A DNA stretch of 64,000 nucleotides from Candidatus Marinacidobacterales bacterium (GTDB lineage Bacteria; Acidobacteriota; Vicinamibacteria; Marinacidobacterales; DATDRI01): NCBI GenBank assembly GCA_965226495.1, contig OZ245365.1:5952001-6016000 (forward strand), written 5' to 3'. The notes under the pieces are model-generated. The model had not been told where the DNA came from, did not search any database, and saw only the letters and a program-made list of their open reading frames with translations. Position numbers and translations under genes: made by a program. This document shows positions 3,537 through 51,549 of the stretch, piece after piece. The first letter of the stretch is position 1. Each line of letters starts with the position of its first letter.

Positions 3537-6500
3537 AGCCGGTGTTGGAGACGCACGAGTTGGCGCGCGTTCTGGAGGATGCGGGGATTGGCGAGATCCG
3601 CTCCGGCCTCTCGACCCCCCCTGGAGGACGACCAGGCGTCCGACGCATCAGCGGGCTCATGGGACCGGCTCGCACGTTGGTCGAAGCCATTCTGGCTGCC
3701 CCCGAGCCAGGCCCCGTCCTCCTAGTCGTTTCGCACGAGAGGCGGGTCGCGGAAGTCTCCTCCGACGTGGCGGCATTTTTCACGTCGATGGGAATCCGTC
3801 GAGAGATATTCCCTTTTCCCGCGCTAGAGGTTGACCCCTACCGCGGGCTCTCTCCACATTTCGACATCATGGCAGCGCGTGCACGTGCGCTGGCGGCTTT
3901 TCTGCAAGAGACACCGGCGCTATTCATCGCACCGGCTGCTGCACTCCTTTTTCGAACGGCGTCTCCTCAGATTTTTTCGGAGGGGATCCTTTCACTTCGT
4001 AGTGGGCAAGTTATCGAGCCGAGCGACATCGAGCGGACGCTCGTCGATTCCGGCTATCTACATGAGGACCCCGTTGTCAGCCCTGGCGATTTTGCGCGAC
4101 GGGGAGGAATTCTGGACATCTATCCGCCCTCGCGCGACGAACCGCTTAGGCTTGAGTTCGTGGGTGACACGCTGGAAGAAATCCGGAGTTTTGACCCAGA
4201 GAGCCAGCGTGCGACCGGCACGTTAGAATCGGTCGATGTTTATCCGGCTCGAGAGTGGATCTTCAGAGAAAATGAGCGTCAACGCCTTATCGACCGGCTG
4301 AGCGATGAAAACGTAGGCGACCTCGAGTTGAAGGAGAGGCTCGAGAGAGAAAGCTTTCCCCCCGGAACGTCCTTCGTTCTTCCCCACCTCGCGGAGTATC
4401 GCGCGACGCTTTTCGATTATTTGCGAAACGGCACGCTTCTGGTCGAGGAACCGGCAGAAATCGCCCGGCAAGCGACGTCAGAATGGGAGCGCGTCCTCGA
4501 GAGTTACGGAGAAGCAGCCACGACCCGCGACACCGCCTACGCGCGTCCAGCGGAGCTGCTCCTGACTCCCGAAGACCTCTCCGCTCACTTCGGAAACCGT
4601 TCGGTGACCATCCAAGAGTTGGACGTCCTGGATGAAGATTCCGGTTCCGCTAGCGCCTTTCACCTGCCGAGCCAACTGCTTCCCTCCTTTAGGGGGAGGA
4701 TCAAGGATTTCCTCGCCGAGATCCGGCAGCAGCTCGACAAGGACCGTCGTATTCACGTCTTTGTTGGCAACCGGGGGTTGGCCGAGCGATTGGTTGAGAT
4801 TCTCGAAGAAGCACAGATCTCGGCCGCGATGGCTTCCGAAGAGTCACAAGCGCGGGGGACGGTAGTGCTTCACATCGGCAATCTCTCACATGGTTTCCTG
4901 CTTCCTTCGCTCGGTCAGGCGGTGTTTGCGGGTAGAGATGTCTTCGAAGAGCCTCCACGACCGGAGCGCAGGCGTTCGAGCAAGCTCGGTCGTTTTCTTT
5001 CCGACTTTCGGGACTTGAAGGTCGGCGACTACGTTGTCCATGCGGATCACGGGATCGGTGTCTTCACCGGCCTACGTCAGATTGCCCCGCAGTCGGGAAG
5101 CGGTGAGTTTGTCATTCTCGAGTACCTGGGAGGGGACAAGCTCTACGTTCCGGTTGAGAAGCTCGATCTGCTCGAGAAGTACTCGGGCCCCGAGGGCCAG
5201 AAACCGCGTATCGAGAAGCTTGGCGGTACGGGGTGGGAGCGGGTCAAGAGCCGGGTTAAGAAATCGATGCGCGACATGGCGCAGGAGCTCCTGAAGCTGT
5301 ACGCGGTGCGGAAGTCCATGCCCGGTCACTCGTTTGCTGCCGATACTCATTGGCAACGCGAGCTCGAGGATCAATTCGAGTATCAGGAGACAGTGGATCA
5401 GGCCCAGGCCATCGAAGAGGTCAAGCGTGACATGGAGGCACCCTTCCCTATGGATCGGCTCCTCTGCGGCGATGTGGGTTATGGGAAGACGGAAGTCGCG
5501 ATGCGCGCTGCTTTCAAGACGGTGATGGATGGAAAACAGGTGGCAGTTCTCGTGCCTACTACCGTCCTAGCGTTTCAACATCTTCATACCTTCCGGTCAC
5601 GGTTCAGCGCTTTTCCGGTTCGTGTCGAGATGCTCTCTAGGTTTCGGACGCCGAAGGAGCAGAAGGTAACCGTCAAGGAGCTCGCTGCCGGTGCCGTCGA
5701 CGTGGTCATCGGAACTCACCGCCTCTTTTCCAAGGACGTTCAGTTTAAAGACCTGGGCCTTCTGGTGGTTGACGAAGAGCAGCGATTCGGCGTTGGGCAC
5801 AAAGAAAGGTTGAAGCAGCTTCGCAAGCAAGTGGACAGCGTGACGATGACCGCCACCCCCATCCCGCGTACGCTCCATATGTCGCTTGCTGGCATCCGCG
5901 ATCTTTCCGTTATCGAGACGCCGCCGAAGGATCGGATGGCGATTCAAACCTACGTCACACGATTGGACTCCAAAATTTTGGCCGAGGCTCTCCGCTACGA
6001 GTTGGGACGAGGTGGCCAGGTCTACTTTGTTCACAATCGGGTAAGTTCCATTTATTCGATGGCATCTTATCTGCAGCGGCTCGTGCCCGAGGCTCGCATC
6101 GGAGTCGGCCATGGCCAGATGAAAGAAGCCGACCTCGAGCGAACCATGCTTCGATTCGTCCGGCAGGAGTTCGATGTGCTGGTCAGCACAACCATCATCG
6201 AGAACGGTCTGGACATACCGCTCGTCAACACCCTGATCGTCAATCGTGCCGACCGCTTTGGTCTCTCCCAGCTCTATCAGCTTCGCGGCCGGGTCGGCCG
6301 CTCCAACCGGCGCGCCTATGCGTATTTTCTCGTTCCCGATGAGAGTGCTCTGACCCCCGTCGCCCGGCGCCGGCTCGCCGCGATCCGCGAGTTTAGCGAT
6401 CTCGGCGCCGGCTTCCGCATCGCGGCGCTGGATCTCGAGTTGCGGGGCGCGGGGAACGTACTCGGCGGCGAACAACACGGGCACATTGATGCGGTCGGCT

Positions 6501-7048
6501 TCGAGCTTTACTGCAAGCTTTTGGAGCAGGCGATTCGGGAGCTGTCCGGAGAAGAGGCCGAGCTCGCTCGATCCACTTTGAATCTCAAGATCGATCTGAA
6601 GATCCCAGAGTCGTTTATTCCCGACATCAATCAGCGTATGTCGGTATACAAGCGGGTTTCCACTGCCAGCGACGCCGCAGCCATCGAAGCGTTGGCGGCG
6701 GAGATCGGAGATCGCTACGGCACGATTCCGGACTCGGTCGAAAGACTCTTCGAGTACGCTCGCCTCAGACTGTTGGCGGAGGGTCTGCGGGTAGTGGCGA
6801 TCGATCGCGAGGGCGATCTGCTGGCCTTTCGATTCGACGCTGCGTCTCCGGTCGACCCTACGAGCTTGGTCAAGCTTGCTGGAGAGCTTCCGGGGGCGCG
6901 GATGACGCCGGGGGGAGTCCTCAAGCTACCGCTTACTCAAACCGAGACTGCCGACCTTCTCCTCCGGGTGAGGGAGGTTTTGCTCGAGCTCTCTCCCTAC
7001 TCTAAAATGAAAGGAACTAGCCCTAGGGAGACGGAGGCCAGGACGTGA
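3533..7048 (+). CDS. mfd: Transcription-repair coupling factor
   Basis: RGGILDI, CarD-like domain, [40 protein letters not shown]. Confidence 0.98.
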
Positions 7049-8010
7049 GGTGGCTGGAAGCGGCCACAATTGTGGGGTTTATCGCGCCGCTATTGGGTTG
7101 CGCAGAGCCTGCGGCGGATCCAATTATCGCAGAGGTTGGCAGCGACGTGGTGACCCTGTCCGAGTTCGAAGCCTACGTCCGAGCGGTTGGCGAGGAAGAC
7201 GTTCCCCTTGTCGGGGGCGAGCTGAAATCGGCTTTGTTGGAACAGCTCATCGAGGAGTTGCTCTTGCTGCAAGCCGCCAAGGATGAAGGCATAGAAGTCG
7301 CTCCCGGTGAGGTCGAGGTGCTCCGCGCCCAGTTGGTGTCGGGGCTGGAAAAACCGGAGCAAGTTGGCCCGGCCGAGTCGCAGGAACACTCGGGCCATAA
7401 TCTTCGCGACCTGACGGCTCACCTGACGCTCAAGAAGCTCATGGAGGCTAAAATTTTGAGGGACATCGCGGTCACCGAAGAAGAGATCGCGGCCTACTAT
7501 GAGGCCAACCGCACCTTTTACAAACGGCCAGAGGCGGTAGCGATTTCCCAACTTCTGGTTGAGAAAGAAGAGGAGGCGAGTCGGCTGCATCGAGAGCTGA
7601 CCGCGGACACGTCTCGCTTCGAGGAACTGGCTCAAGCGCATTCGGTAGGGCCTGAGGCCGGCAATGGGGGACACCTCGGTGCCTTTCGCCGTGGCGAGCT
7701 ACCGGCATCCTTCGAGAGAGAAGTGTTCGGCATCAAGAAGGGAACGCTGTCTCCGGTCGTCAAGACTGACTTTGGGTTTCACATTTTCCGCGTCGATCAG
7801 ACGTTTCGGGCGCGGGACTTGCCGCTGAAAGACGTGGAACAGGCTATCCGGGTTGAGCTACTGCGCCAAAAGAGCGACGAAGCCTTGGCGCTCTTCATGG
7901 AAGTTCTAGAGAAACGTTACCCGGTCCGGGTCGCTACCGAAGAATTGGACTTTCCGTTCATGAATCGGAATGGGTATGACACGGAACCGAGAACAGCGGG
8001 TGAGCAGTAA
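7045..8010 (+). CDS. PpiC/PrsA-type peptidyl-prolyl isomerase, probable lipoprotein
   Basis: LLGC lipobox, FEELAQAHS, GGHLG, VKTDFGFHI. Confidence 0.88.
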   Translation: MRWLEAATIVGFIAPLLGCAEPAADPIIAEVGSDVVTLSEFEAYVRAVGEEDVPLVGGELKSALLEQLIEELLLLQAAKDEGIEVAPGEVEVLRAQLVSGLEKPEQVGPAESQEHSGHNLRDLTAHLTLKKLMEAKILRDIAVTEEEIAAYYEANRTFYKRPEAVAISQLLVEKEEEASRLHRELTADTSRFEELAQAHSVGPEAGNGGHLGAFRRGELPASFEREVFGIKKGTLSPVVKTDFGFHIFRVDQTFRARDLPLKDVEQAIRVELLRQKSDEALALFMEVLEKRYPVRVATEELDFPFMNRNGYDTEPRTAGEQ

Positions 8011-8035
8011 TCAGTCATCAGAGGCCAGAAAAGAC

Positions 8036-9061
8036 ATGATATACACAATCATCGCAATCACGTTGGCGGGAGCGCTCGGCGCTTCTCAACCCGAAATAGT
8101 AGAGCGTGTGGTGGCCAAAGTGAACGGCAGGATCATCACCATGACCGAGCTGGATGATGAAATGAAGACGGTCCTGGAACAGTTGGGACCGGCCGCGAGC
8201 GCGGAGGAGGAGCGGCTCCGGATGGCCGAGTTACGTCCCGAGGTCCTCCAGAGCATGATCGACAACATGCTCGTCCTGCAGCTCGCGACCGAAAGAGGTC
8301 TCGAGGTTCCACCACGCTATTTCGAAGAGTGGAAGGCCAACGTCATGGAGGAAATGAGCCTCGAGTCCGAAGAGGAGCTTACCCGTCAGATGGAATTACA
8401 GGGCATGAACATGGCCCAGTTCAAGAAACAGTGGGAAGAGGGCCTTCTGATACAAGAGATCCGCCGTATCGAGGTAGATAACAAGGTTTCTGTCAACGAG
8501 CCGGAGATCGAAAAGTACTATCACGAGCACATCAGCGAATACACGCAACCGGCGAAGGTTCGGTTTCGTGAGATCGTCGTGCGATTCGATGCAAGCACCG
8601 AGTTTGAAGCGGTCGACAAGGCGAAGCGCCTGCATCAAGATCTGCTGCAAGGAGCCAGCTTCGCCGAAGTGGCCCGACTTCATTCAGACTCTTCATCGCG
8701 TGACGCGGGCGGCGATCTAGGTTTTTTCGAAAAGGGCGAGCTCGCCGAGCCGCTGAACGAGGTGGCCTTCAGCCTCGCGCCGGGAGAAATTAGTGAAGTG
8801 CTACGCATGGGTGCCGCGTTCTACATCGTGAAGGTGGAGGAGACGACGGAGGAGCACACCCTGCCGGTCGAAGACGTCCGCAAAACGATCGCCGACTCCA
8901 TTTATCAAGAAAGCGTGCAGGAACAAAGCAAGAAGTACATCACCAAACTCCGTGAGCAAGCCATCATTGAGATCCAGCTAGACCCGAAACCCAAGGGACC
9001 CGTTAAGCCCGACGGGCCCGCTAAGGAAGCGCAGGCTCCCGGCGAGAGCCCAGGCCAGTAA
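8036..9061 (+). CDS. SurA-like peptidyl-prolyl isomerase/chaperone
   Basis: VERVVAKVNGRIIT SurA N-domain, FAEVARLHS, GGDLGF. Confidence 0.88.
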   Translation: MIYTIIAITLAGALGASQPEIVERVVAKVNGRIITMTELDDEMKTVLEQLGPAASAEEERLRMAELRPEVLQSMIDNMLVLQLATERGLEVPPRYFEEWKANVMEEMSLESEEELTRQMELQGMNMAQFKKQWEEGLLIQEIRRIEVDNKVSVNEPEIEKYYHEHISEYTQPAKVRFREIVVRFDASTEFEAVDKAKRLHQDLLQGASFAEVARLHSDSSSRDAGGDLGFFEKGELAEPLNEVAFSLAPGEISEVLRMGAAFYIVKVEETTEEHTLPVEDVRKTIADSIYQESVQEQSKKYITKLREQAIIEIQLDPKPKGPVKPDGPAKEAQAPGESPGQ

Positions 9062-9355: not shown

Positions 9356-10375
9356 ATGAAAAGCCTAGTCATCGATCGTCTCGAAGTGAATCCGCCCTTG
9401 GTCCTCGCTCCACTCGCGGGGCATACTGATCGAGCCTTCCGTGGCTTGGTAAGGCACCTAGGTGGCTGCGGTCTGGTGGTGACCGAGATGGTCAGCTCTG
9501 AGGGGTTGACCCGAGGTAGCCAGGCTTCCCGAGATATCGCCGCCGTGACTCACGAGGAGCGCCCGGTGGGCGTCCAGGTATTCGGAACCGATCCCGACCG
9601 GCTCGCCGCCGCCGCCAACATGGTTGACGAGTTCGGTGCTGATCTGGTCGACGTCAACATGGGGTGTCCGGTTCCCAAAGTGACGCGGCTCGGCGCGGGT
9701 GCCGCTTTAATGCGTGATGTGAAGCAAGCGAGCAAACTTATTTCTCAGATGGTGAAGTTGGCCACCATTCCGGTGACGGCCAAGATCCGTTCTGGTTGGG
9801 ACTACGATTGCATCAACGCTCGAGAGGTGGCCTGCGCACTCGAAGATGCCGGCGCCGCCGCCATCACCGTACACCCGCGTTGTCGCAGTGAACGACACCG
9901 TGGGAAAGCCGCTTGGCAAGTCATTCGAGACGTGAAGGAATCGGTAAAAATTCCTGTAATCGGGAATGGAGACGTGCGCTCTGCGGAGGATGCGCGAGCG
10001 ATGATCGCCGAGACCGGCGTGGACGCCATTATGATCGGCCGCGGCGCCCTCGAGAATCCCTGGGTGTTCCGCCAAGTGAGCGACGAGCTTAGCGGTAGAG
10101 AATCGTCTCATCCCACGATGAATGACTACCGACAGGCGATCACGTTTTTTACCCAGAGTCTCAAGGAGTATCTGCCGGATAAGCTGGTAGTGAATCGTGT
10201 GAAAGCCCTCATCGGGTGGATCTCGAAGGGCTTGCCGGGAGGCGCGGCTCTCCGGCGGAACATATACGCTTCGAAGACACTTCCGGAAGTTACTCACGTT
10301 TTCGAAGCCTACTTCGCAGACCCGAACTGTCAGCTGGCGGAAGAAGAACCCCGCCTCGCACCTTACCCTGCCTAG
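9356..10375 (+). CDS. dusB: tRNA-dihydrouridine synthase B
   Basis: LAPLAG, TEMVSS, DVNMGCPV, IPVIGNGD, MIGRG. Confidence 0.92.
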   Translation: MKSLVIDRLEVNPPLVLAPLAGHTDRAFRGLVRHLGGCGLVVTEMVSSEGLTRGSQASRDIAAVTHEERPVGVQVFGTDPDRLAAAANMVDEFGADLVDVNMGCPVPKVTRLGAGAALMRDVKQASKLISQMVKLATIPVTAKIRSGWDYDCINAREVACALEDAGAAAITVHPRCRSERHRGKAAWQVIRDVKESVKIPVIGNGDVRSAEDARAMIAETGVDAIMIGRGALENPWVFRQVSDELSGRESSHPTMNDYRQAITFFTQSLKEYLPDKLVVNRVKALIGWISKGLPGGAALRRNIYASKTLPEVTHVFEAYFADPNCQLAEEEPRLAPYPA

Positions 10376-10758
10376 CCCGCCTGGCCCGTTCGCTCGGTTC
10401 CGCGAAGAGGGAGGGGACGGAAAAAGAAAACCACCGTGACGGCGAGTAGGGTCATCGCCGCACTCACCAAGAGCCATTGCGGAGCTCGAAAATACACCAA
10501 GTTCTCCACGTAGTGAATAAGGAAGGCCCCCTCGTACGCCGAAGATCCAGCTCGCCTCCACAAGGCTTGCTCAAGGTGAGTCAGCGGGCAGGTCCAACGG
10601 AAGACTTCGATCGCCAGGCTATAGATGACCGCAAGCAAGTGAATGCGCCTCAAGCGGGAGTGTCGACGTAACCAGAAAGCCCCGGTGATAACGAAAACGA
10701 TCCACGCCAAGTGCAGTAGGACTGTGGCTTCGGCGGCCAGGGTGTATACGAGCTTCAA
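10372..10758 (-). CDS. DUF2784-like membrane protein
   Basis: HLAWIVF...CPLTHLEQALW...FLIHY; start uncertain. Confidence 0.75.
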   Translation of the reverse strand: MKLVYTLAAEATVLLHLAWIVFVITGAFWLRRHSRLRRIHLLAVIYSLAIEVFRWTCPLTHLEQALWRRAGSSAYEGAFLIHYVENLVYFRAPQWLLVSAAMTLLAVTVVFFFRPLPLRGTERTGQAG

Positions 10759-11855
10759 TGAGGGGATACCTCTTCTTCTTCCCGCTCTTTCAAAACGCGA
10801 AGCACGTTTTCCCCTAAGATCTTGCGGACTCTCTCTTCGCTCCATCCCGCATCGAGCATGAGCTGGGTGAGCCCGGTAGCATCGACCGGGGTTTGCACGA
10901 AGCCGTCAAAGTCACTGCCCAGCGCCGCCACGTCCTCTCCTCCAACCGAGACCATGTGCCGGAGGTGTGCCATCACTTCGAGGAGATCCGATTGCTCCGT
11001 GGCCGGTGGGGCCAGCATGACGCCGATCACTCCCTCCTTGGCCGCTATGACCCGGATCTGCTCATCGCTGATGTTTCGCGGCGTGTCGTGGATGGCGCGT
11101 GCGCCGATGTGGCTAACGAGCGGAGGCAGAGTGGTAAGCGCGAGTGATTCCTCGAAGCTCTTTGCACTGGCATGTGAGAGATCGACCATGACGCCCCGCC
11201 GGTTCATCTCTAGAATCAGCTCTCGACCCAGATCGGTGAGCCCTCGATTCGAGCCCTGGGAGCTTCCACCGTACTTATTGTCCGCCAAGTGCACCGGCCC
11301 GATGAAGAGCACGCCTTGGTGTTTCACATCTTCGACTCGAGAGAGATCGTCGTCCAGCGCATGGGCGCCTTCAATGCCGTGAAAGACTGAGAGAACGCCT
11401 CGTCGATGGTTTTCCCGAATGGCGTCGGCGGTATCGACTCGCTGCACGAGGCCCTCGGATTGAGCGACGAAATCGTGCATGCGTTGAAGCTGATACTGAA
11501 GTCGCTCCCATGGCGACAGCCAGGTCGCTGGTGGCCAGAAGTCATGGAACGCCTTGAGTCCCGCGACACCGAAAAAGAGGGTGGCGGTGGTGAAGGCAGT
11601 AGCGTCCAAGCCCCCTTCTCGCATGCGAGAAAAATCCACGTGTCCACCAGAGGGTGGGAGGTTGAGATCGCGCGGCCAGAGGAGGGAGTCGACATGAAGG
11701 TCGATTACGATGGCCTCGCGGTGAATACGAATTGCCTCTGGACCGGGCTTCACCGCGGGGGGTGCATAGCGGGGAGTCGGTTCTAGATCGACGAGGAAGA
11801 AGATGACCAGAAAGACTAGTGAGATGGAGAGTAGGTAGCGGAGAGTGCGCCGCAT
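10755..11855 (-). CDS. Membrane dipeptidase (peptidase M19)
   Basis: IDLHVD, IEGAH, VDLSH, SH, LGSDFDG; likely start MRRTLRY, since the upstream extension lies in repeat DNA. Confidence 0.88.
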   Translation of the reverse strand: MRRTLRYLLSISLVFLVIFFLVDLEPTPRYAPPAVKPGPEAIRIHREAIVIDLHVDSLLWPRDLNLPPSGGHVDFSRMREGGLDATAFTTATLFFGVAGLKAFHDFWPPATWLSPWERLQYQLQRMHDFVAQSEGLVQRVDTADAIRENHRRGVLSVFHGIEGAHALDDDLSRVEDVKHQGVLFIGPVHLADNKYGGSSQGSNRGLTDLGRELILEMNRRGVMVDLSHASAKSFEESLALTTLPPLVSHIGARAIHDTPRNISDEQIRVIAAKEGVIGVMLAPPATEQSDLLEVMAHLRHMVSVGGEDVAALGSDFDGFVQTPVDATGLTQLMLDAGWSEERVRKILGENVLRVLKEREEEEVSPH

Positions 11856-11898
11856 GGGGCACATTGTAAAGCGAAAAAACAAAAGGGGGGCCTTGCAC

Positions 11899-12079
11899 CC
11901 CTCCTCCGGTGTCTGGCTACATGGGAACGGCACGCCGTAGCTTGACGCCACCCTCTCCCAAAGGGAGAGGGGAAAAGGAAAAAGGCCGTGGCCCTCACCC
12001 GGCGTCTGGCTACATGGGAACGGCACGCCGTAGCTTGACGCCACCCTCTCCCAAAGGGAGAGGGGAAAAGGAAAAAGGC
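11899..12079 (+). repeat. Two tandem copies (93-bp period) of a REP-like palindromic element
   Basis: GG(C/T)GTCTGGCTACATGGGAACGGCACGCCGTAGCTTGACGCCACCCTCTCCCAAAGGGAGAGGGGAAAAGGAAAAAGG occurs twice. Confidence 0.9.
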
Positions 12080-41981: not shown

Positions 41982-42407
41982 CTACTCACCAGGTACAACC
42001 TGAATCGACCAAAGAAAGTGGGTGAGCTGGTTGATGCGTTCTTGCGCTTGCGCCTCGGTGTCGGTGGTTTTGAAGGCGTTTCCCCAGACCGGCATGTCTT
42101 TGCTCCCATGGCCGGCCACCTTTTCACGGCCGTCGATTATTTTGCCGACGTCGTCGAATGGGAATTCCCCGTTTCTCTCTCTGATGCGAGTGAGATCCGC
42201 CGGCGCCACTCTCAGATCGTTGGCGAGGGGTCCATCTCCCTTGGCGCCCAAGCCATGGCAGCTCCCACAATAGGTCTTGAAGGACTCACCTCCCGCGGCG
42301 GCCGCCGCGTTGGGCCTTTCTCTTTGCTGTCCAGCGCCCAGCAGAAGGATCGCCAGGAGGCCCGGAACGAGCAGAAGGTCAACAGTCGCAGATCTTGTCT
42401 TTTGCAT
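41982..42407 (-). CDS. Monoheme c-type cytochrome
   Basis: Signal peptide, CGSCH, PADLT, MPVWG. Confidence 0.9.
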   Translation of the reverse strand: MQKTRSATVDLLLVPGLLAILLLGAGQQRERPNAAAAAGGESFKTYCGSCHGLGAKGDGPLANDLRVAPADLTRIRERNGEFPFDDVGKIIDGREKVAGHGSKDMPVWGNAFKTTDTEAQAQERINQLTHFLWSIQVVPGE

Positions 42408-42595: not shown

Positions 42596-43738
42596 ATGGC
42601 AAAGACGGGAAGTACGGTCCGATTGCTTCTGGTTGGAGCGGGGCACGCCCACATGGAGGTTATTCGACGCCTCGTAGTGAGCTCTGATTCTTGGGCGCAC
42701 GTCACCGTCGTATCCCAATTCGACAAGCACCACTATTCGGGCATGGTGCCGGGGTATCTCCGGGGGAGCTACCGCGAGGAAGACGTCTCTTTCGACCTGC
42801 CACCCCTGATCACCGCGGCCGGGGGTGAGTTCGTCTGCAAGCGAGCGGTCGGTATCGATCCCGCCCGCCGCGTCGTTCGCTTGGAAGGTGGTGGGGAGAT
42901 CGAGTACGACATCGTTTCCTTCAATGTGGGATCCCGGACCATCGCGGGGGATTCCGCCGGCCCGCATGCGGCGCTCGTGAAACCCATGTCCCGAGCGGTC
43001 GACCTTCATCGCCGCATACTCGAGCTCGCCCATCGGGACGGGAGCAAAACACGGCATGCCGCCGTTGTCGGCGGCGGGTCCGCGGGCGTGGAGATAGCCT
43101 TTGCAATATCCGCGGTGCTCGACGACGCTGGTCGCGATCGGGACGTAAAGATCCTCGAGGGTTCGGACGGGATTCTCCGGGGGTACTCGGAGCGCTTTCG
43201 AGAACGCGCCGTAAGTATCCTGAGGCACAAGAAAATCAACGTGCGTACGGGCCGGAGAGTCGTCAAGGTTCATCCGGACACGGTCGAGCTCGAGGACGGT
43301 TCTCGCGACGAGAGTGACCTGACCGTGTGGGTCACCGGACCAGCCGGCCCTGGGATCTTCGAAGGGTCGAAGCTCCAGCTCGACGGTCGCGGGTTCCTTC
43401 TCGTCGACGACTCCCTTCGCTCGTTGAGCGATCCCAATGTGCTTGGCGTCGGCGACTGTGTCACGTTGGCTAACTATCCGGCGACACCGAAGGCGGGGGT
43501 CTATGCGGTAAGAGAGGCCCCGATCCTTTGGGAGAGCCTTCTTTCGGCCGTCGGCCAGGGGGCTCGGCCTCGCTACCGACCCCAAGAAGGTTTTCTTTCT
43601 ATCCTTAATACTGCCGACGGAAAGGCCTTGTTGCGATATAAGTCCTACATCACGCATAGTCTTCCCGCCTGGTGGCTCAAGGATTGGATCGATCGGCGCT
43701 TTGTGGCGAAGTACCAAAGTTTGGTTGGAGCGAAATAG
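42596..43738 (+). CDS. Pyridine nucleotide-disulfide oxidoreductase of the type usually fused to the N-terminus of SelD
   Basis: LVGAGHAH, YSGMVPG, GGGSAGVE, GDC, PKAGVYAVR, WLKDWIDRRF. Confidence 0.85.
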   Translation: MAKTGSTVRLLLVGAGHAHMEVIRRLVVSSDSWAHVTVVSQFDKHHYSGMVPGYLRGSYREEDVSFDLPPLITAAGGEFVCKRAVGIDPARRVVRLEGGGEIEYDIVSFNVGSRTIAGDSAGPHAALVKPMSRAVDLHRRILELAHRDGSKTRHAAVVGGGSAGVEIAFAISAVLDDAGRDRDVKILEGSDGILRGYSERFRERAVSILRHKKINVRTGRRVVKVHPDTVELEDGSRDESDLTVWVTGPAGPGIFEGSKLQLDGRGFLLVDDSLRSLSDPNVLGVGDCVTLANYPATPKAGVYAVREAPILWESLLSAVGQGARPRYRPQEGFLSILNTADGKALLRYKSYITHSLPAWWLKDWIDRRFVAKYQSLVGAK

Positions 43739-43740
43739 TC

Positions 43741-44439
43741 ATGTATTTTTGCCATTCTGACGAGATGTGGCGAAAGTTTCCGCAGCTCGTTCCTGGGGCG
43801 ATGGTTATTACCGGAGTTCACGCCGATGCCGATGTGAGTCTCGCGCCTTGGTTCGACCGCGCTCGGGAACGCTTGGAGGTCGGCCCGGAGTCCCAGTTGC
43901 CGGAGATCGTCGCTTGGCGCCGCGCCTACGCGCAGATGGGAATGAAGCCCACGCAGTACCTCTCCGCCGCAGAGGCACTTCTGCGTCGCTTCCGGACGGA
44001 GGGCGATTTGCCTCTTCTTCATCCTCTGGTCGATCTTTGTAACGCGGTCTCGCTAGCCTTCGCGCTACCGGTTGCGGTCTTCGATCTCGGGAAGGTGGAT
44101 CGGTATCTCGAGGTGCGCCATTCGAAGGGTGTCGAGCAGTACCTCACCTTCGGCGGCGAGATAGAGACACCTCCTCAGGGTGAGGTGATCTTCGCCGATG
44201 CTTCGAATCAGGCTCATGCTCGCCGGTGGACGTTTCGCCAGAGCAAGAGATCCGCGATGGGCCCGGGGACGACGACGGCGCTCGTTGTTGCCGAGGGATT
44301 GCATGAGACGGCCTTCCGGGATGTTCCCGCACTACTTGATGCGCTTGATGAGGCGGTCACAAAGTCTTGGGCTGCTCCGCACCAGCGGGCCGTTTTGAGC
44401 GTCGAGGGTCCTCGCTTGGAGTTTGCTCTCGATCTCTGA
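43741..44439 (+). CDS. Standalone B3/B4 (PheRS-beta editing) domain protein
   Basis: AWRRAYAQMG.KPTQY.SAAEALLRR, LVDLCNAVSL, GEVIFAD, RRW. Confidence 0.88.
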   Translation: MYFCHSDEMWRKFPQLVPGAMVITGVHADADVSLAPWFDRARERLEVGPESQLPEIVAWRRAYAQMGMKPTQYLSAAEALLRRFRTEGDLPLLHPLVDLCNAVSLAFALPVAVFDLGKVDRYLEVRHSKGVEQYLTFGGEIETPPQGEVIFADASNQAHARRWTFRQSKRSAMGPGTTTALVVAEGLHETAFRDVPALLDALDEAVTKSWAAPHQRAVLSVEGPRLEFALDL

Positions 44440-44458
44440 TATTTAAAAGGAGGAAACC

Positions 44459-45274
44459 ATGCCGACGGTCCGATTGAGACGCGTGTCCGAGTATCCCGAG
44501 AAGATGCAGAAGCGTTTCGAGTTGGCTAAGGAATGGTTCAACTATGATTTCGAGACGCCACCGGCGATGAGTCTGGTTATGGCGTGGGACCCTGGGTTCG
44601 GCGCTCCCCATGGCCGCGCCATGAAGCGCGCCGCCGAACCGGGAGAGTTCACGCGCGCCGAAAAGGAGATGGTGGCGTCCGTCGTTAGCGGCGTGAACGC
44701 CTGCGAGTATTGAGTGAAGGCGCATACTGCAGCCGGGAAGCTGCAAGGAATGAAAGAAGACGCGCTCTGGTACGAGGCGGCGAACACGGTGGGAATCACG
44801 AACGCGCTGAACGTGGTAACGGATTCTCTGTCTCCGGACGCGAGCACGCACCTTATCGAGCCGGTGGACGAGAGGATCGATGACAAGAGAACGGCCTCGT
44901 GTTTCGCGAATATCCGAGACTTCTATGACAGTGAGAGTGTGCCGCTCCCGTTTCGGATCGCGGCGCATGACCCTGGCTATCTGGGCGATCTTTGGGAGAC
45001 GGTCCGGCACGCATTCAGCGATAGACGGCTCACGAGACGCTTCAAGGAGGCGCTGGCATTCGCAGTGTCGGTCACGACGAGCTCTCGATTCGGCACCGCC
45101 TTTCACCTCGCGGAGATGCGCCGGCTAGGAGTAGGAAACAAAGGGGTCATGGAAGTTTTGGGCATGACCCAGATGTTCTCTAGCTATACGAAGATTGCGG
45201 ATACGCTTCAGCTCGATCCGGACATGGGTGACATCGCGCCTATCGACCCGTCTCCCGTTCCCGATCCGAGCTGA
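44459..45274 (+). CDS. AhpD/CMD-like selenoprotein (CxxU, Sec85), two CMD domains, 271 aa
   Basis: In-frame TGA at 44711-44713 within VNAC-E-Y-U-VKAH (AhpD CxxC-xxxH pattern); frame stays open; AAGGAGG RBS; downstream hairpin. Confidence 0.88.
44728..44745 (+). promoter_or_regulatory. Putative bacterial SECIS element (AhpD-like gene)
   Basis: TGCAGC-CGGGAA-GCTGCA hairpin; loop starts 20 nt after the UGA and has G near its 5' side. Confidence 0.65.
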
Positions 45275-45288
45275 CTCGAGGAGGAATC

Positions 45289-45948
45289 ATGAAGAAGTGG
45301 TTGATTGGAATCGCCATAGTTGCCGGCGTGGCCGCGCTCGCTAGCCAGGGCTACTACTATGCTCTCAAGAAGGCATGGGTCCTCTACAACGAGTACGACA
45401 TCCGCAGCGAGGGTACGCTGCGGGTGGGCGATCTGGCTCCGGACCTGGAGCTCGCGAGTGTGGACGGTGGAACCCAAAAGTTATCCGATCTGTTCAAGCA
45501 AAAACCGCTGGTCCTCATTTTTGGAAGCTACACCTGACCGCCTTTTCGAGCCAGTTTGGCCGAAGTCGAAGAGCTGAGGGAGAAGTTTCGAAGCGACGCC
45601 GAGTTCGCCATCGTTTACATCAAAGAAGCTCATCCTGGGGACGAGTGGCAGCTAGATAGCAACATCGAGGGGGAGATCGTCTATAACCAACCGAACTCTT
45701 TCGAGGCGCGGATGGATCTCGCCAAGACCTTCATCGATAAGATGGAAGTGAAGACACCGACGCTCGTCGACGATATCCAGAATACGGCGATGGCTTGCTA
45801 CGCAGCGTGGCCGGAGAGGCTCTACGTCATCGACACCGATGGCACGATCGACTACAAGGGGGACATGGGACCCTTCGGATTCAAGCCGGAGCAGTTGGAA
45901 GGCTACCTCGAGGAGCGATTCGCGGGAAGGGGCGCGACAGACCGCTAG
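45289..45948 (+). CDS. Iodothyronine deiodinase-like selenoprotein (Sec83), N-terminal membrane anchor, 219 aa
   Basis: In-frame TGA at 45535-45537 within PLVLIFGSYT-U-PPF; downstream YIKEAHPGDEW, YAAWPERLYVI, YKGDMGP. Confidence 0.92.
45544..45565 (+). promoter_or_regulatory. Putative bacterial SECIS element (deiodinase-like gene)
   Basis: TTTCG-A-GCCA-GTT-TGGC-CGAAG bulged hairpin; GU-starting loop 16 nt after the UGA. Confidence 0.65.
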
Positions 45949-46985
45949 TGGCAACTCCCACTCAAACGTTCGATGCCGCGAAGGTCAAAGAACTGGCCCT
46001 CGAGCTGGGGGCCGATCTCGTCGGCATCGCCAGCGCGAAGACGCTCAACGCGTTCCCTCCCGATCCGAAGTATCCGCAGACGCCGGAGCGCGTTTCTCCT
46101 CACTGCAAGAGCGTCGTCGTCGTCGTACAACGGATCCCGGTCGGTGCCTTCCGCTGCAAGTCCAACGTGCCGGTTCAGTACTTGGATATGCTCGTGCTCC
46201 GGAAGATGGACAAGGTCGCTTATCGGTTGGCCGAGCATCTGGAGCGCGCCGGCCATCCGTCCTTCGTGACCGCGGCCCAAGAGACCGACTGGAACTATAA
46301 AAAAGCAAGCTACGGACGGCTGAGCACGCGCCACCTCGGCATCGAAGCGGGGCTCGGCACATTCGGTCTAGAAGTGAACATCTTGACGCCGGAGTACGGG
46401 CCTCGGGTCTATCTCACTGGAGTTCTGACCGAGCTCGAGCTCGAGCCCGACGCACCCATGACTGAGCAGGTGTGTATCGGCGAGTCCTGCAGCCGTTGCC
46501 TCTATAGCTGCCCAACGGATGCCATCGGGCATTTCGACATCGATAAGCGTGAATGCGCGAAGGAGGCGCAAGAGTTTGGTTTCGTCACAATCCTCAAGTA
46601 TTTCGAGCGGTTCGTCGCGGCGCCCCGAGAAGCCAAGGCGGCGATGCTGAAGTCGCGTGACCTCTACGGTTTCTGGCAGGGGTTGCTCCGGGTGGTTGGA
46701 TCCTTCGGGGATTGTCCGAGGTGCCTCGCTGTCTGCCCGGTCGGAGATGACTACTACGCGCATTTGGTCGAGATACAAAAGTTCATTCCCGAGACGACCG
46801 ACGAGAAGATCGCCAAGGCTAAGAAGTTCAAGGCGGCTCGCAAGCGTGGCGATGCCGTCGAGGGGCTCAACGAATGGAACGCCCGATGGGTAGGGCCGGA
46901 AGGTTACCAAGGTCTCGTGGCACGGCACGTCAAGAAATTCCGCGAGAAACAAAAAGAACTCCTCGCGCGGTCTGGGAAGAGATAG
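45948..46985 (+). CDS. QueG/reductive dehalogenase-like cobalamin-Fe-S protein, paralog 1
   Basis: LGADLVGIA, RHLGIEAGLG, LTPEYGPRV, CIGESCSRCLYSCP...C...CPRCLAVCP; GTG start overlaps the upstream TAG. Confidence 0.85.
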   Translation: MATPTQTFDAAKVKELALELGADLVGIASAKTLNAFPPDPKYPQTPERVSPHCKSVVVVVQRIPVGAFRCKSNVPVQYLDMLVLRKMDKVAYRLAEHLERAGHPSFVTAAQETDWNYKKASYGRLSTRHLGIEAGLGTFGLEVNILTPEYGPRVYLTGVLTELELEPDAPMTEQVCIGESCSRCLYSCPTDAIGHFDIDKRECAKEAQEFGFVTILKYFERFVAAPREAKAAMLKSRDLYGFWQGLLRVVGSFGDCPRCLAVCPVGDDYYAHLVEIQKFIPETTDEKIAKAKKFKAARKRGDAVEGLNEWNARWVGPEGYQGLVARHVKKFREKQKELLARSGKR

Positions 46986-46995
46986 TTTCCGCATC

Positions 46996-48012
46996 ATGGC
47001 CGAGATCTACCAAGCACATCTGACTGCCCAGCAGATCAAGGCGAAGGCACGGGAGCTCGGCGCCGACCTAGTCGGAATCGCCGACGGTAAGATGATAGAG
47101 GAACACCCTCCCGAGCCGAGCGATCCGCGGCGACCATCCGATATCACCGACTATGACGGTGAGCGCGTCATCGTTATGGCGAAGAAGTATACGAGTGGCA
47201 CCACCCGTATTCTTCCTTGGAACGACCGTCACAAGTACTACAACGACGAGCTGACGTTGACGCTCTTGGAAGAGGCTTCGCTCGAGCTCGTTTACTGGCT
47301 CGAGGACAACGGCTACCCGTCCATCATCATTCCTCCCACCCACGTCGATCCCTGGCGCTACCAGGACAAACCGGAGGAGCACCAAAAGACGTTACTGTCG
47401 CTAACCCATGCAGCGGTCGAGGCGGGCTTGGGAACCCTCGGTCTAAACTTGCAACTGCTTACGCCCGAGTACGGACCGCGGGTGATCCTCACCGCGGTAC
47501 TGTGCTCCGTGGATTGCGAAGCAGACAGTCGCATCGAAGAAGCGCTCTGCCTCGGGCCCGAGTGCGGGCGGTGTTTGGAAACCTGCCCCGGAGACGTCGT
47601 CCAGCACTGGAATCGCGATTGGGAAGGGTGCGATCGCTACCGATCGCCGCACGGCTTCGCCCAGTTGACCGACCACCTCGTCACCATCCTGGACGAGGCG
47701 GACGTTGCCAAACAGAAGGAGATGGTCCGTTCGGAGGAAAGCTTCAACCTTTGGCAGAGCATTTTGCGAGGGGCCGGTGTCATTACCGGTTGCCGCCGGT
47801 GCCAGGACGTCTGCCCGGTGGGCGAAGACTACGCCGTCCTGGAGGATGCTCTAGAACGGATCCCCGAGAGCACGCCCGAGAAGAAGACACACCTCCTCGA
47901 GATGATGGAGGTCGAAAAAAGGGAAGTCCCCCCTGGCGGCTACCAAGCCCAACGCCGTTGGATCGGGGAGGTTACGTACCGCAAGCCCTGGCCTAAAGCC
48001 TTCGATGTCTGA
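46996..48012 (+). CDS. QueG/reductive dehalogenase-like cobalamin-Fe-S protein, paralog 2
   Basis: LGADLVGIA, THAAVEAGLG, LTPEYGPRV, CLGPECGRCLETCP...C...CRRCQDVCP. Confidence 0.85.
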   Translation: MAEIYQAHLTAQQIKAKARELGADLVGIADGKMIEEHPPEPSDPRRPSDITDYDGERVIVMAKKYTSGTTRILPWNDRHKYYNDELTLTLLEEASLELVYWLEDNGYPSIIIPPTHVDPWRYQDKPEEHQKTLLSLTHAAVEAGLGTLGLNLQLLTPEYGPRVILTAVLCSVDCEADSRIEEALCLGPECGRCLETCPGDVVQHWNRDWEGCDRYRSPHGFAQLTDHLVTILDEADVAKQKEMVRSEESFNLWQSILRGAGVITGCRRCQDVCPVGEDYAVLEDALERIPESTPEKKTHLLEMMEVEKREVPPGGYQAQRRWIGEVTYRKPWPKAFDV

Positions 48013-49114
48013 CGCAATCCGCCTGCTTTGTTCGATCGTCGCAGCCTCCCTTCTTTCATCGACTACAACGTCCGCGCAAACCGTGCTCCGAACCCGGAAC
48101 GTCGTTCTGGTTACCGCCGACGGCCTGCGGCACCAGGAGCTCTTCGGTGGACTGGACCGCGCTCTTCTCGAGGGCGAACGAAAGAGTGGAATCGAGGATC
48201 CCGAGGCCCTTTCGGCACGCTTTTGGCGCCACTCAACACGGGACCGTCGCGAACGGTTGATGCCCTTTTTCTGGAAGACCCTTGCACCCCGGGGGATCGT
48301 TCTTGGGAGTCGCGCCGACGGGGCCACGGTCTCGGTGACCAATCCTCATCGCGTCTCCTATCCCTGCTATGCGGAGATACTCACCGGTCAAGTACAGCCA
48401 AAAGTAACCGGCAACATCCCGATCCAGATTCCCCACGAGACGGTGCTCGAGTTCGTCCGACGAGAGCTCGAGCTGGAGACGACCCAAGTCGCAGCCTTCA
48501 CTTCATGGAATCACTTTCCTTATATCGTCGAGCACCAGCCCGGGTCCATCACCGTAAACGCTGGAGGGCCGTTGCCCGAGGGCATGCAAACCGAGGAGAT
48601 CCGTCGCCTTGTATCGCTCGAAAAGAGAACGCTGTCTCCATGGAGCTCGGTGCGGCAGAACGTCTTCACCGAAGGCCTAGCCTTCGCTTACCTCAGGGAG
48701 TTCCAGCCGCGCTTTCTTTTTCTCGCGCTCGATGAGACCGACGAGTGGGCCCACGGGCGGCGCTACGACCGTACCCTCCAGGCGATCCGAAACTTCGATG
48801 AGACGCTTCGGTTGTTATGGACGCTCCTCCAGTCGATGGAGGCTTATCGCGACAAGACGACGTTCGTGATCACGACCGACCATGGACGGGGCCGCACGCC
48901 CGCCGATTGGACGTCACACGGCAAAGACATCCCGGGGGCCGAGGAGATTTGGATCGCGATCATCGGCCCCGATACAACTGCCCAGGGGGTCGTCCCCAAC
49001 CATCCCCCTTTTAAGCAGACCCAGATCGCCGCCACGATTCTCAAGTTCTTCGGGCTGGATCCAGGAAAGTTCAACCCTCGAGCCGGGGAGCCGGTTTCGC
49101 TCGCGTTACCCTGA
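48005..49114 (+). CDS. Secreted alkaline-phosphatase-superfamily protein
   Basis: VVLVTADGLR, SYP.Y.EILTG, ETDEWAH, ITTDHGRG. Confidence 0.85.
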   Translation: MSDAIRLLCSIVAASLLSSTTTSAQTVLRTRNVVLVTADGLRHQELFGGLDRALLEGERKSGIEDPEALSARFWRHSTRDRRERLMPFFWKTLAPRGIVLGSRADGATVSVTNPHRVSYPCYAEILTGQVQPKVTGNIPIQIPHETVLEFVRRELELETTQVAAFTSWNHFPYIVEHQPGSITVNAGGPLPEGMQTEEIRRLVSLEKRTLSPWSSVRQNVFTEGLAFAYLREFQPRFLFLALDETDEWAHGRRYDRTLQAIRNFDETLRLLWTLLQSMEAYRDKTTFVITTDHGRGRTPADWTSHGKDIPGAEEIWIAIIGPDTTAQGVVPNHPPFKQTQIAATILKFFGLDPGKFNPRAGEPVSLALP

Positions 49115-49911: not shown

Positions 49912-51549
49912 CTACTCCTCTATTGATTTTCTTTCCGACTCCTTCTGTCGCAGTTCCACACGGCGGATCTTGCCGGTTTGGGTGCGAGGAAGCTCGGATA
50001 CAAACTCGACTTCGCGCGGATATTTGTATGGCGCGAGCTGCTCTCGCACATGCTTTTGGAGCTCCTCGGTGAGCTCGGCACCAGCGTCGAAGCTCTTGTT
50101 CAGGACGACGAAGGCTTTCACGATGTGCCCGCGAAGCTCGTCCGGCGAAGCGACGACCGCCGTTTCCGCTACCGCCGCGTGTTCCATTAGAACGTTCTCC
50201 ACCTCCGGGCCGGCGACGTTGTAGCCGGAAGTGATAATTAGATCGTCGCCGCGACATTGGTAGTGGAAGTAACCTTCTGAGTCGCGCGTGTAGATGTCCC
50301 CGGGTAGGTTCCAACCTTCCCGGACGTATCGCTTCTGACGCTCCGGCTTGCCCCAGTACTTGCAACCGGTGGGTCCGGAAACGGCGAGCATCCCCGGTTT
50401 TCCGTCGGGAAGATCCTGCATTTTTTCGTCCACCACTCTTGCCTGATAACCCGGAACGACTTCGCCCGTTGATCCGGCTCGTGCGCGACCCGGCTGAGAG
50501 GAAATGAAGATGTGGAACAATTCGGTGCTCCCGATCCCGTCGAGGAGCTCCATGTCGAACATCTCTTTCCACTGCTCGAACGTCACCGCAGGGAGAGTCT
50601 CCCCAGCACTCACCGGCGCCCGAAGGCTCGAGAGATCGAACCGTTGTTTTACGTTCTCGACCTGCATCATGAGTTTGTAGGAAGTCGGCGCGCAGAACGC
50701 GCCGGTCGCGCGGTATCGAGTGATGGTATCCAACATCGTTTCTGGAGTGAACCGCTCGATGAGACATGTCGCGGCCCCGAATCGGAGCGGATAGACCAAC
50801 AACCCGCCTAGTCCGAAGGTGAAGGCGAGAGGCGGATGACCGGTGAAAATATCTCCCGGCTCCGGGGCGAGGACTTTCTTGGCATAGGTGTCCGCGGAGG
50901 CGAGTACGTCGCTCGGGAAGTGGACGCAGCCTTTGGGAACACCGGTGCTGCCCGATGTGTAGGCGATGAGCGCCGGCTCGTCCCGGCCGATCTCCACCGA
51001 GGGCACCGGTTCGTACGCGGCGAGCTCCTCGAAGGTCGGTGAGCCTGGTGAGCCTGACGTAGAGTCTCCCGACACAACAATCTTCTCGATGGTGTCGAGC
51101 TGTGGTCGCGCTTTCTCCATCTCTTCGTAGAGGTCTGAAGAGACCAAGGCGACTTTTACTCGAGAGTCGTTTGAAACGTATTCCAACTCCCGCGCGCGAA
51201 GCAGTGGCATGGTCGCTAGCACGACCGCGCCCAACTTCTGAAGGGCGAACCAGGCGACGACGAATTCGGGACGATTGGGGAAGCGAAGCAAAACTCGATC
51301 GGTCGGCTCGACGCCTATGCTACGAAGCCCCCCCGCGAGCCGACTCGCCCTCTCGTCGAGCTCCCGGTAGCTGATGATCTCGTCCCGGTAGTAGATCGCA
51401 GGCATTTCGGCGAGCCCGGAATCCATCGCACGGCGCAGAAGCTCGTCGGCGAGGTTGAGTCGTGAAGGAATTTCGACAGTGACCCCATGCGCCCGGCGTG
51501 GCGGCATGAGATCCGCCGCGGGAAGGTAATCGGTTAGGTCGAAGGCCAA
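49912..51549 (-). CDS. Benzoate/2-aminobenzoate-CoA ligase family protein
   Basis: YTSGSTGVPKG, PPLAFTFGLGG, SAGETL, DGIGSTE, APYKYPR, TGKI. Confidence 0.88.
   Translation of the reverse strand: MAFDLTDYLPAADLMPPRRAHGVTVEIPSRLNLADELLRRAMDSGLAEMPAIYYRDEIISYRELDERASRLAGGLRSIGVEPTDRVLLRFPNRPEFVVAWFALQKLGAVVLATMPLLRARELEYVSNDSRVKVALVSSDLYEEMEKARPQLDTIEKIVVSGDSTSGSPGSPTFEELAAYEPVPSVEIGRDEPALIAYTSGSTGVPKGCVHFPSDVLASADTYAKKVLAPEPGDIFTGHPPLAFTFGLGGLLVYPLRFGAATCLIERFTPETMLDTITRYRATGAFCAPTSYKLMMQVENVKQRFDLSSLRAPVSAGETLPAVTFEQWKEMFDMELLDGIGSTELFHIFISSQPGRARAGSTGEVVPGYQARVVDEKMQDLPDGKPGMLAVSGPTGCKYWGKPERQKRYVREGWNLPGDIYTRDSEGYFHYQCRGDDLIITSGYNVAGPEVENVLMEHAAVAETAVVASPDELRGHIVKAFVVLNKSFDAGAELTEELQKHVREQLAPYKYPREVEFVSELPRTQTGKIRRVELRQKESERKSIEE

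Follow-up and report, generated by a model that had tools for sequence, protein, structure and literature searches.

We describe here a string of seven genes that fills positions 42596-49114 on the plus strand of a 64,000-nucleotide (nt) stretch of DNA, hereafter the window (G000:C1:5952001-6016000), from a Candidatus Marinacidobacterales bacterium whose genome (G000) is one contig of 6.34 Mb with 59% G+C. In order, the genes (g1 to g7) encode a flavoprotein, a B3/4-domain protein, an AhpD-like selenoprotein, a deiodinase-family selenoprotein, two paralogous iron-sulfur proteins of the QueG/RdhA superfamily that are called QA and QB, and a protein of the alkaline phosphatase superfamily. We consider it rather probable that the string is a genus-specific mosaic, in which selenoprotein redox genes stand next to a reductase that resembles the class III B12 enzymes and was gained by lateral transfer, and not one conserved system. 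If this is correct, the pairing of a deiodinase gene with RdhA/QueG genes would be an accident of insertion and deletion and not a new dehalogenation system.

Four components would make up this mosaic. One comprises the flavoprotein (mostly fused to SelD in relatives), the B3/4 protein and the membrane-anchored deiodinase-family selenoprotein, solitary in related genera. Another is the AhpD-like selenoprotein with its CxxU motif, which would be confined to this genus among the relatives searched. The QA-QB pair would be a proteobacterial module gained laterally and would act as a heterodimeric class III reductase with base-off cobalamin and two [4Fe-4S] clusters; elsewhere its partner would be an adenylating ligase of the PaaK type, frequently joined by a Liv-type ABC importer and in some cases by a 4HBT thioesterase. 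The phosphatase-superfamily gene g7 would be a strain-specific addition. As for the history, we propose that a ligase-QA-QB module inserted downstream of the deiodinase gene in this genus and that the ligase gene then decayed in one sister genome (G002) and was deleted on the line leading to G000 and to the other sister genome (G001). The deletion of the ligase gene would explain why the deiodinase gene and QA overlap by 1 nt.

An earlier description of this DNA, made from the letters alone (the sequence-only reading), had reported seven co-oriented, tightly packed genes and had named a family for each. Both points hold, as the successive gaps are 2, 19, 14, -1 (TAGTG), 10 and -8 nt and profile searches agree with all seven family identities. 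The same description had joined the genes into one pathway. Its parts list, its two selenocysteine (Sec) codons, the selenium and B12 capacity of the host and the separation of QA and QB from true QueG all stand; the single pathway is weakened, although not disproved.

Gene neighborhoods of QA and QB in other bacteria

A scan with one genome per species provided 80 loci that have a QA relative at 68-94% identity. According to their record titles, 47 are from Alphaproteobacteria, 28 are from Betaproteobacteria and five have other labels, including SAR324, 'Pseudomonadota', Enterobacteriaceae and one acidobacterial locus (L018, from G002) that belongs to the genus of the window. QB adjoins QA in all 80. 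Matches to g1, g2, g3 and g4 are present only in L018, and g7 is matched in none of the loci. A PaaK-family adenylating ligase of about 433 amino acids (aa), recognized by the NCBIfam PaaK-family and Pfam AMP-binding profiles, is present in 65 of the 80 loci. Among the 68 loci with 1.3 kb or more of sequence past QB, 62 have it, and in at least 48 loci it directly follows QB. Parts of a Liv-type ABC transporter are present in 35 loci and 4HBT thioesterases in 13. These neighbor counts rest on cluster membership and not on gene order, and the open reading frame (ORF) caller, weighted by third-position G+C (GC3), missed the anchor genes in 19 loci. Thus, the partners that QA and QB have elsewhere are PaaK-type ligases, Liv-type transporters and thioesterases and not selenoproteins, which counts against the idea that the seven genes serve one dehalogenation pathway.

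Because of these ligase, importer and thioesterase partners, we infer that QA and QB catalyze a reductive step (a dehalogenation, a dehydroxylation or a de-epoxidation) on a carboxylic acid that has been activated as a coenzyme A (CoA) thioester. The 4-chlorobenzoate pathway, which consists of a CoA ligase, a dehalogenase and a 4HBT thioesterase, is a familiar parallel. Like the proteobacterial QA/QB loci, it combines an importer, an adenylating ligase, a modifying enzyme and a 4HBT thioesterase; however, its dehalogenase is a hydrolytic enzyme of the crotonase family. We tentatively suggest that QA and QB, together with the PaaK-type ligase and the Liv-type importer, could be a new, heterodimeric branch of the class III B12 enzymes, with CoA-activated acids as substrates and aerobic Proteobacteria as hosts. 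A literature search, with supplementary files outside its scope, found no description of the seven-gene combination or of the QA-QB-ligase triad. The triad is widespread, lacks a curated family and keeps 70-79% identity across bacterial classes, and it merits experimental follow-up.

Distribution in the order and in the sister genomes

The presence or absence of the genes was surveyed in 41 genomes of the order and, for QA at an E-value of 1e-40, in a sample of 400 further genomes from the phylum. Within the order, QA orthologs are present in all three genomes of the window's genus (G000, G001 and G002) and nowhere else, and they are absent from all 400 of the other genomes. The deiodinase gene is present in 17 of the 41 genomes, and all of the full-length matches have the TGA codon. 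At 12 deiodinase loci from 11 genomes outside the genus, no other gene of the cluster lies within about 10 kb, and the neighbors vary. A metagenome scan with the deiodinase-like protein gave eight loci, four of them under 3 kb. Strong orthologs of the AhpD-like protein are limited to the window's genus among the relatives searched, with none in the 400 phylum genomes, and the loci of AhpD paralogs outside the genus do not have the partner genes alongside. Orthologs of the B3/4 protein (59-66% identity) at five loci of other genera have no other cluster genes nearby, and homologs of the flavoprotein are present in 36 of the 41 genomes.

The sequence-only reading had looked to conserved synteny in other genomes. 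What is found is a neighborhood that is confined to one genus (three genomes) and is variable there, which is essentially the outcome that the reading had named as speaking against itself. The distribution of QA and QB and their 70-79% identity to the proteobacterial copies would imply that the pair entered the genus by lateral transfer. In that case the locus would be a dated example of a foreign enzyme module wired into a host gene string.

The two sister loci differ from the window in several ways. In G001 (L106) the order is dipeptidase, flavin adenine dinucleotide (FAD) oxidase, g1, g2, g3, g4, QA, QB and then a convergent CoA ligase gene; QB (end at 8397) and this ligase gene (end at 8326) directly abut, and neither g7 nor g8, an ORF that follows g7 in the window, is present. 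The TAGTG junction between the deiodinase gene and QA is identical in the window and in G001. In G002 the AhpD gene is split by a gene for a Mutator-family transposase (127 bits; 4526..5899, minus strand), and the AhpD match also extends over two frames, where an assembly error is possible. A 732-aa ORF (6813..9011) lies between the deiodinase gene and QB of G002; in it the N-domain of a PaaK-like ligase (residues 11-356 of 434, 56% identity to a proteobacterial ligase), presumably what is left of the decayed ligase, is in frame with QA. After QB, genes for an AbiEi/AbiEii toxin-antitoxin system (10176..11930) stand in place of g7, which has no match in either sister locus.

QA and QB as class III B12-type proteins

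QA and QB are paralogs with 34% identity. A profile of the QA family matches solved structures of QueG (5d08, 4e-19), the reductive dehalogenase PceA (8q4h, 5e-17, and 4uqu, 9e-16) and NpRdhA (4ras, 7e-11), and the alignment spans the cobalamin-binding domain and the first cluster motif. The eight cysteines of the two [4Fe-4S] motifs are invariant in 78 QA and 66 QB sequences, as are, in both paralogs, the AGLG and TPEYGPR stretches that are common to QueG and PceA. QA is the more constrained of the two: 44% of its columns are invariant among the 78 sequences compared with 18% in QB, and the ratio of nonsynonymous to synonymous substitution (dN/dS) is 0.053 for QA and 0.101 for QB. Arg128 of QA aligns with Arg141 of Bacillus subtilis QueG, which lies under the corrin; QB has no arginine there. 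We infer a cobalamin cofactor for the pair from this homology. Class III B12 enzymes have no sequence motif for cobalamin binding, according to the discussion of PMC4646009.

Neither protein reaches the cut-off of the families to which it is related. Against the QueG equivalog TIGR00276 (cut-off 200), QA scores 57.7 bits and QB 38.9; against the RdhA family TIGR02486 (cut-off 160.35), the scores are 39.8 and 27.5. The DYH motif and the catalytic Asp134 of QueG (B. subtilis numbering, from PMC5175355 and PMC4646009) correspond to K-V-A and Ser121 in QA. No profile match extends past model position 207 to the C-terminal, HEAT-like tRNA-binding domain of QueG; about 80 residues come after the final cysteine motif, and this domain may be missing. 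The genome has its own QueG elsewhere, at 376.6 bits. In a maximum-likelihood tree, QA and QB form sister clades (99/96), which are set apart from this QueG and from three RdhA-like genes of the genome by a branch with 99/99 support. Therefore, the two are not true QueG proteins, in agreement with the sequence-only reading.

Two natural fusions, P0121 (670 aa) and P0122 (678 aa), have one half in the QA clade and the other in the QB clade. Because of these fusions and the adjacency of the two genes in all 80 loci, the simplest reading is that QA and QB most likely form a heterodimer. Six distant proteins of 760-794 aa (P0187, P0217, P0228, P0239, P0252 and P0256) contain between two and four repeats that resemble QA, and some of them match QueG_DUF1730 weakly. 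Among the relatives of QA, the only informative domain fusions are the QA-QB fusions and these multi-repeat forms. In a protein atlas, the QA homolog P0045 carries only the labels 'hypothetical', 'epoxyqueuosine reductase family' and ferredoxin clusters.

QA and QB are thus similar to QueG (5d08, 5d6s) in their homologous cobalamin-binding and two-cluster ferredoxin domains and in the Arg141 equivalent of QA. They differ from it in lacking DYH, Asp134 and a match to the HEAT-like part, and in being a side-by-side pair of paralogs, whereas QueG is a monomer (PMC5175355). With the reductive dehalogenases PceA (4uqu/8q4h) and the catabolic NpRdhA (4ras) they share the superfamily and, with the catabolic type, a cytoplasmic location. 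However, they have no twin-arginine (TAT) signal, no RdhB and no fused reductase, and their conserved partner is a CoA ligase. The position of PceA Tyr246 is a leucine in the profile alignment of the QA family, which is of low reliability at that point.

The two selenoproteins

The sequence-only reading had placed two Sec codons in the string. Both are at the redox residues of their proteins and are conserved in orthologs. In alignment with 2oyo, the TGA of g3 replaces the second cysteine of the AhpD CxxC motif; it is retained in G001 and G002 and also in weaker matches at 29-37% identity, while a pattern search for the sequence context of this UGA gave no matches. In alignment with mouse Dio3 (4tr3), the TGA of g4 is the Sec of the FGSxTUPPF site, and all 20 distinct orthologs (20 of 20) retain it. 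That both codons are decoded as Sec is well supported, mainly by their position and conservation as read from the alignments. The host is equipped for it, as had been anticipated: selA (570.1 bits), selB (377.7 bits), a Sec-containing selD (332.6 bits) and two tRNA-SeC genes are present in the genome, and so are cobQ, cobS and a B12 riboswitch. The tRNA-SeC genes found by ARAGORN are at G000:C1:173953-174050 and 176351-176447, 2.3 kb apart. The same program also calls a second 'transfer-messenger RNA (tmRNA)' at 408773-409255; its tag is odd, and the call could be false.

The genome also has a second member of each selenoprotein family. A further deiodinase-family selenoprotein with the site G-S-I-T-U-P-F-C (L126 9746..10483, at about 4.273 Mb of G000:C1) scores 44.7 bits with PF00837 and shows no N-terminal anchor; a further AhpD/CMD selenoprotein with CxxU is at L125 9633..10376, minus strand (about 5.468 Mb). 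These copies are linked neither to each other nor to the window.

The deiodinase-like protein g4 is a clear member of PF00837 (E 3e-36, cut-off 27), and its best structural matches are mouse Dio3 (4tr3, 1e-25) and Dio2 (9h48, 3e-20). With the mammalian iodothyronine deiodinases it shares the Pfam family, the FGSxTUPPF site, a YIxEAHPxDxW stretch and an N-terminal anchor. Residues Ser80, Thr82, Sec83, Tyr110, Glu113, His115 and Trp120 align with Ser167, Thr169, Sec170, Tyr197, Glu200, His202 and Trp207 of Dio3. In contrast, the thyronine-binding and resolving residues Cys168, His219, Cys239, Phe258 and Arg275 of Dio3 are not conserved, as g4 has Tyr, Pro, Thr, Pro and Met in these places. The Dio3 numbers were obtained by counting outward from Sec170. 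They agree with His202, Trp207, Asp211, Phe258 and Arg275 as named in passages of PMC11592359, and the other numbers, including that of His219, are our own. Against the NCBIfam family deiodinase_rel (NF038285), g4 scores 189.3 bits, which is under the cut-off of 250, and matches only positions 177-338 of 347. As judged from its aligned residues, g4 keeps the Sec-centered, peroxiredoxin-like core (Ser-x-Thr-Sec, Tyr, Glu, His and Trp) without the residues that we mapped as thyronine-binding (Arg275, Phe258 and His219 in Dio3).

The absence of the latter residues fits the view, expressed in PMC1088965, that bacterial deiodinase-like forms serve another redox function; thyroid hormones are not expected in bacteria (PMC1088965). 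Deiodinases are described as peroxiredoxin-like in passages of PMC11592359, and we would assign a thiol/selenol redox role of the peroxidase type to both selenoproteins. The N-terminal hydrophobic segment of g4 is present in 11 of the 11 orthologs examined, and the residues that precede it carry more net positive charge than those that follow. Under the positive-inside rule, this arrangement probably puts the catalytic domain on the periplasmic side. Inspection by eye found no export signals in the AhpD-like protein, QA or QB.

The AhpD-like protein g3 passes both of its profiles (cut-offs of 23 for PF02627 and 27.8 for TIGR00778). Selenoproteins of the AhpD-like and deiodinase-like families are already in the literature, as is one case of neighboring peroxiredoxin-like (Prx-like) and AhpD-like genes (passages of PMC1088965, PMC2398784 and PMC13188914). 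The selenoproteins from ocean metagenomes reported by Zhang and Gladyshev (PMC1088965 and PMC2398784) resemble those of the window in their families, in the CxxU and Sec positions and in having a hairpin after the UGA codon. They differ in that the AhpD-like and deiodinase genes described here adjoin each other and a SelD-family flavoprotein gene, and do so in one genus only. In the window, two bacterial selenoprotein families that annotation pipelines routinely truncate at UGA are represented by clean genes of full length.

The flavoprotein and the B3/4 protein

The flavoprotein g1 belongs to the family that is N-terminal to SelD in fusion proteins; its match to TIGR03169 is full length (2-365 of 365), with a score under the cut-off of 310. 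In four of the five related genomes checked (G008, G028, G013 and G009, from other families of the order), SelD and a g1 homolog (35-42% identity) are in one open frame of 789-911 aa that has no TGA. In G000 and G003, which are from the window's family, the flavoprotein and SelD are separate and SelD has a Sec codon. The flavoprotein g1 resembles the Ndh-SelD fusion proteins (TIGR03169/TIGR04369) in being homologous to their flavoprotein half, with fusions in relatives of the same order; it differs in that it is not fused, lies about 300 kb away from selD and has a cytochrome c gene diverging from it. The unfused ortholog in G003 (L151) is again divergent from a cytochrome c gene (69% identity by tblastn) and is not followed by a B3/4 gene. 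Sequence inspection found no CxxC or CxxxxC pair in g1.

For the B3/4 gene g2, the ATG at 43741 is a likelier start than the upstream GTG at 43672. At G000:C1:887-889 kb (L130 128..856 and 865..2052), a paralog of this gene is followed by an RdhA-family gene with a TIGR02486 score of 170.1 bits (cut-off 160.35). A conserved functional link between B3/4 and RdhA proteins was considered and set aside, as the adjacency is present in two of 18 paralog loci, both in this genus (G000 and G002).

Weighing the explanations

Several observations weigh against a mosaic of unrelated parts. A scan for promoters and terminators found no convincing plus-strand terminator between the genes of the string. Together with the very tight six junctions, this makes it likely that the genes are co-transcribed in the genus and that the deiodinase gene is translationally coupled to QA, which could reflect recruitment into a shared function. 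The GTG at 45948 is the sole in-frame start near the homologous N-terminus of QA, and so QA probably depends on this coupling. The dN/dS values are 0.05-0.22 for all eight genes common to G000 and G001; this purifying selection means that they are working genes, whatever their mutual relation. The lateral transfer of QA and QB is argued from distribution and from identity to proteobacterial copies; the G+C content of the pair has no anomaly, and the tree leaves the donor unresolved. The partner searches were tblastn searches with the window's own proteins, which very distant analogues would escape, and several metagenome contigs are too short to show the neighbors of the deiodinase gene. The second B3/4-RdhA adjacency in the genome hints at a recurring link. 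As for the Sec codons, the conserved hairpin after the g4 TGA has 91.6% of its cells paired, compared with 13-60% when the partners are slid, but its covariation is not significant (reached by 93 of 500 shuffles), and the minimum free energies of 60 nt past each UGA are no better than those of shuffles (z-scores of 0.00 and 0.29). RNAalifold gave another consensus structure for the g4 hairpin region, with zero compensatory pairs.

In the idea of the sequence-only reading, the whole string would be a single reductive dehalogenation pathway for iodo- or bromo-aromatics, dependent on selenium and cobalamin, in which the flavoprotein and the AhpD-like protein recycle the selenoenzyme and QA and QB take further halogens. 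Organohalogens are common in marine settings, and the closest named relative of the organism is from a marine-labelled lineage. The tight co-oriented packing, the real homology to deiodinases (125.3 bits) and to RdhA/QueG, the Sec and B12 machinery, the adjoining benzoate-CoA ligase family gene and the intact cluster under purifying selection in two genomes are all what such a pathway would require or display. Yet the neighborhood is not conserved beyond one genus, the deiodinase/QA junction would be the product of a ligase gene loss, the AhpD gene is disrupted in G002 and g7 is missing from both sister loci. Moreover, the counterparts of Dio3 Arg275, Phe258 and His219 (the last by our own count) are not conserved in g4, this protein is probably on the periplasmic side whereas export signals are lacking in QA, QB and the AhpD-like protein, and the genome has unlinked second copies of both selenoprotein families. 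We regard this pathway as very unlikely. A version limited to the genus, in which the borrowed QA and QB were coupled to the deiodinase-family gene, the AhpD-like protein and the benzoate-CoA ligase in a selenium-plus-cobalamin dehalogenation route for halogenated aromatic acids, is highly improbable.

Two other explanations concern parts of the string. AhpD proteins are known to recycle peroxiredoxins, as in the mycobacterial Lpd-DlaT-AhpD-AhpC system. By analogy, g1, g3 and g4 might be a hydroperoxide- or disulfide-reducing system that became co-expressed with QA and QB after their transfer and that protects or feeds an oxygen-sensitive Fe-S/corrinoid enzyme in an aerobe. The tight junctions, the peroxiredoxin-like nature of deiodinases (PMC11592359) and the adjacent Prx-like/AhpD-like gene pair reported from ocean metagenomes (PMC2398784) would agree with this. 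However, 79 of the 80 QA/QB loci have no such selenoprotein genes, g1 lacks a CxxC or CxxxxC pair and its SelD-fused relatives point to selenium metabolism rather than to peroxide reduction, and the topology suggested for g4 would part it from the AhpD-like protein. Such a support system is quite unlikely in our view. It is also unlikely, as we judge it, that QA and QB are not cobalamin enzymes at all and instead are Fe-S (or flavin) proteins with a nitroreductase-like fold, e.g., an electron-transfer pair for the ligase pathway. Class III B12 enzymes offer no sequence motif by which to recognize cobalamin binding (PMC4646009, discussion), QA and QB are far under the QueG and reductive dehalogenase cut-offs, DYH and Asp134 are absent, QB has no arginine under the corrin and an Rfam search of eight loci found no riboswitch near the pair, the B12 type included. 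On the other side, homology at the profile level covers the entire cobalamin-binding domain in three B12 enzymes of solved structure, AGLG and TPEYGPR are invariant in both paralogs and QA keeps the Arg141 equivalent. The mosaic with a cobalamin-type reductase is the explanation that we prefer.

Coordinates, annotation and surroundings of the string

The features of the locus are collected in Table 1.

Table 1. Features in and around the seven-gene string, in window positions
Feature	Positions	Strand	Matches and remarks
Cytochrome c gene	41982..42407	-	Divergent from g1, outside the seven-gene string; Pfam Cytochrome_CBB3 32.2 bits
g1, NDH-2/SQR-type flavoprotein, 'N-terminal to SelD' family	42596..43738	+	Pyr_redox_2 97.1 bits; TIGR03169 299.6 bits
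g2, stand-alone B3/4-domain protein	43741..44439	+	PF03483 76 bits
g3, AhpD/CMD-family selenoprotein, 271 aa, C-E-Y-U motif	44459..45274	+	CMD (PF02627) 57.2 bits; TIGR00778 47.1 bits
g3 in-frame TGA (Sec codon)	44711-44713	+	
g4, deiodinase-family selenoprotein, 219 aa, G-S-Y-T-U-P-P-F, N-terminal hydrophobic anchor	45289..45948	+	PF00837 (T4_deiodinase) 125.3 bits
g4 in-frame TGA (Sec codon)	45535-45537	+	
g4 conserved hairpin after TGA	about 45545-45564		
g5 = QA, QueG/RdhA-superfamily Fe-S protein	45948..46985	+	Partial QueG/RDH matches
g6 = QB, paralog of QA, Fe-S protein	46996..48012	+	Partial QueG/RDH matches
g7, alkaline-phosphatase-superfamily protein, signal-peptide-like N-terminus	48005..49114	+	Metalloenzyme 35.8 bits; Phosphodiest
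g8, 217-aa ORF	49234-49887		Without matches in Pfam or NCBIfam
Benzoate-CoA ligase family gene, convergent with the string	49912..51549	-	TIGR02262 389.9 bits, cut-off 375.25

Shine-Dalgarno-like sequences precede both selenoprotein genes (AAGGAGG before g3 and GAGGAGG before g4). Translation with table 11 splits g3 into pieces of 84 and 186 aa and g4 into an 82-aa piece and a 130-aa ORF that starts with TTG, and the database relatives of g3 are stored almost solely as the piece of about 186 aa past the UGA. The remark of the sequence-only reading that standard annotation would fragment two of the genes is thus borne out. Relatives of g7 are widespread and are labelled 'hypothetical / alkaline phosphatase family'.

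An Rfam search of positions 41000-52000 gave nothing meaningful, its one match being to whalefall-1 at 20.9 bits, under the gathering score. The cytochrome c gene has no match in the loci of G002 or G001. The ORF g8 has frame breaks in G002 and is absent from the G001 locus.

The 6.5-kb stretch is present nearly word for word in 19 public sequencing runs from seven studies. A DNA contig from one public run spans positions 41900-49859 with no differences, and it may derive from the source sample. One metatranscriptome run has three short contigs. Among these, a 195-nt one bridges the QA/QB junction, and a 186-nt one at the g1/g2 junction reaches just 30 nt into g2, a single letter under the threshold for a bridging contig. 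These contigs hint at expression but do not prove it, since carry-over of DNA is possible.

Upstream of the cytochrome c gene, positions 39325-41975 hold a gene for an M19 membrane dipeptidase with a signal-peptide-like start and a gene for a DAO-family FAD oxidoreductase; the family nearest to the latter is a putative aminophosphonate oxidoreductase, at 197 bits, far under the cut-off of that family. In G001 and G002, the dipeptidase and FAD oxidase genes run straight into g1, and so the co-oriented string is longer there.

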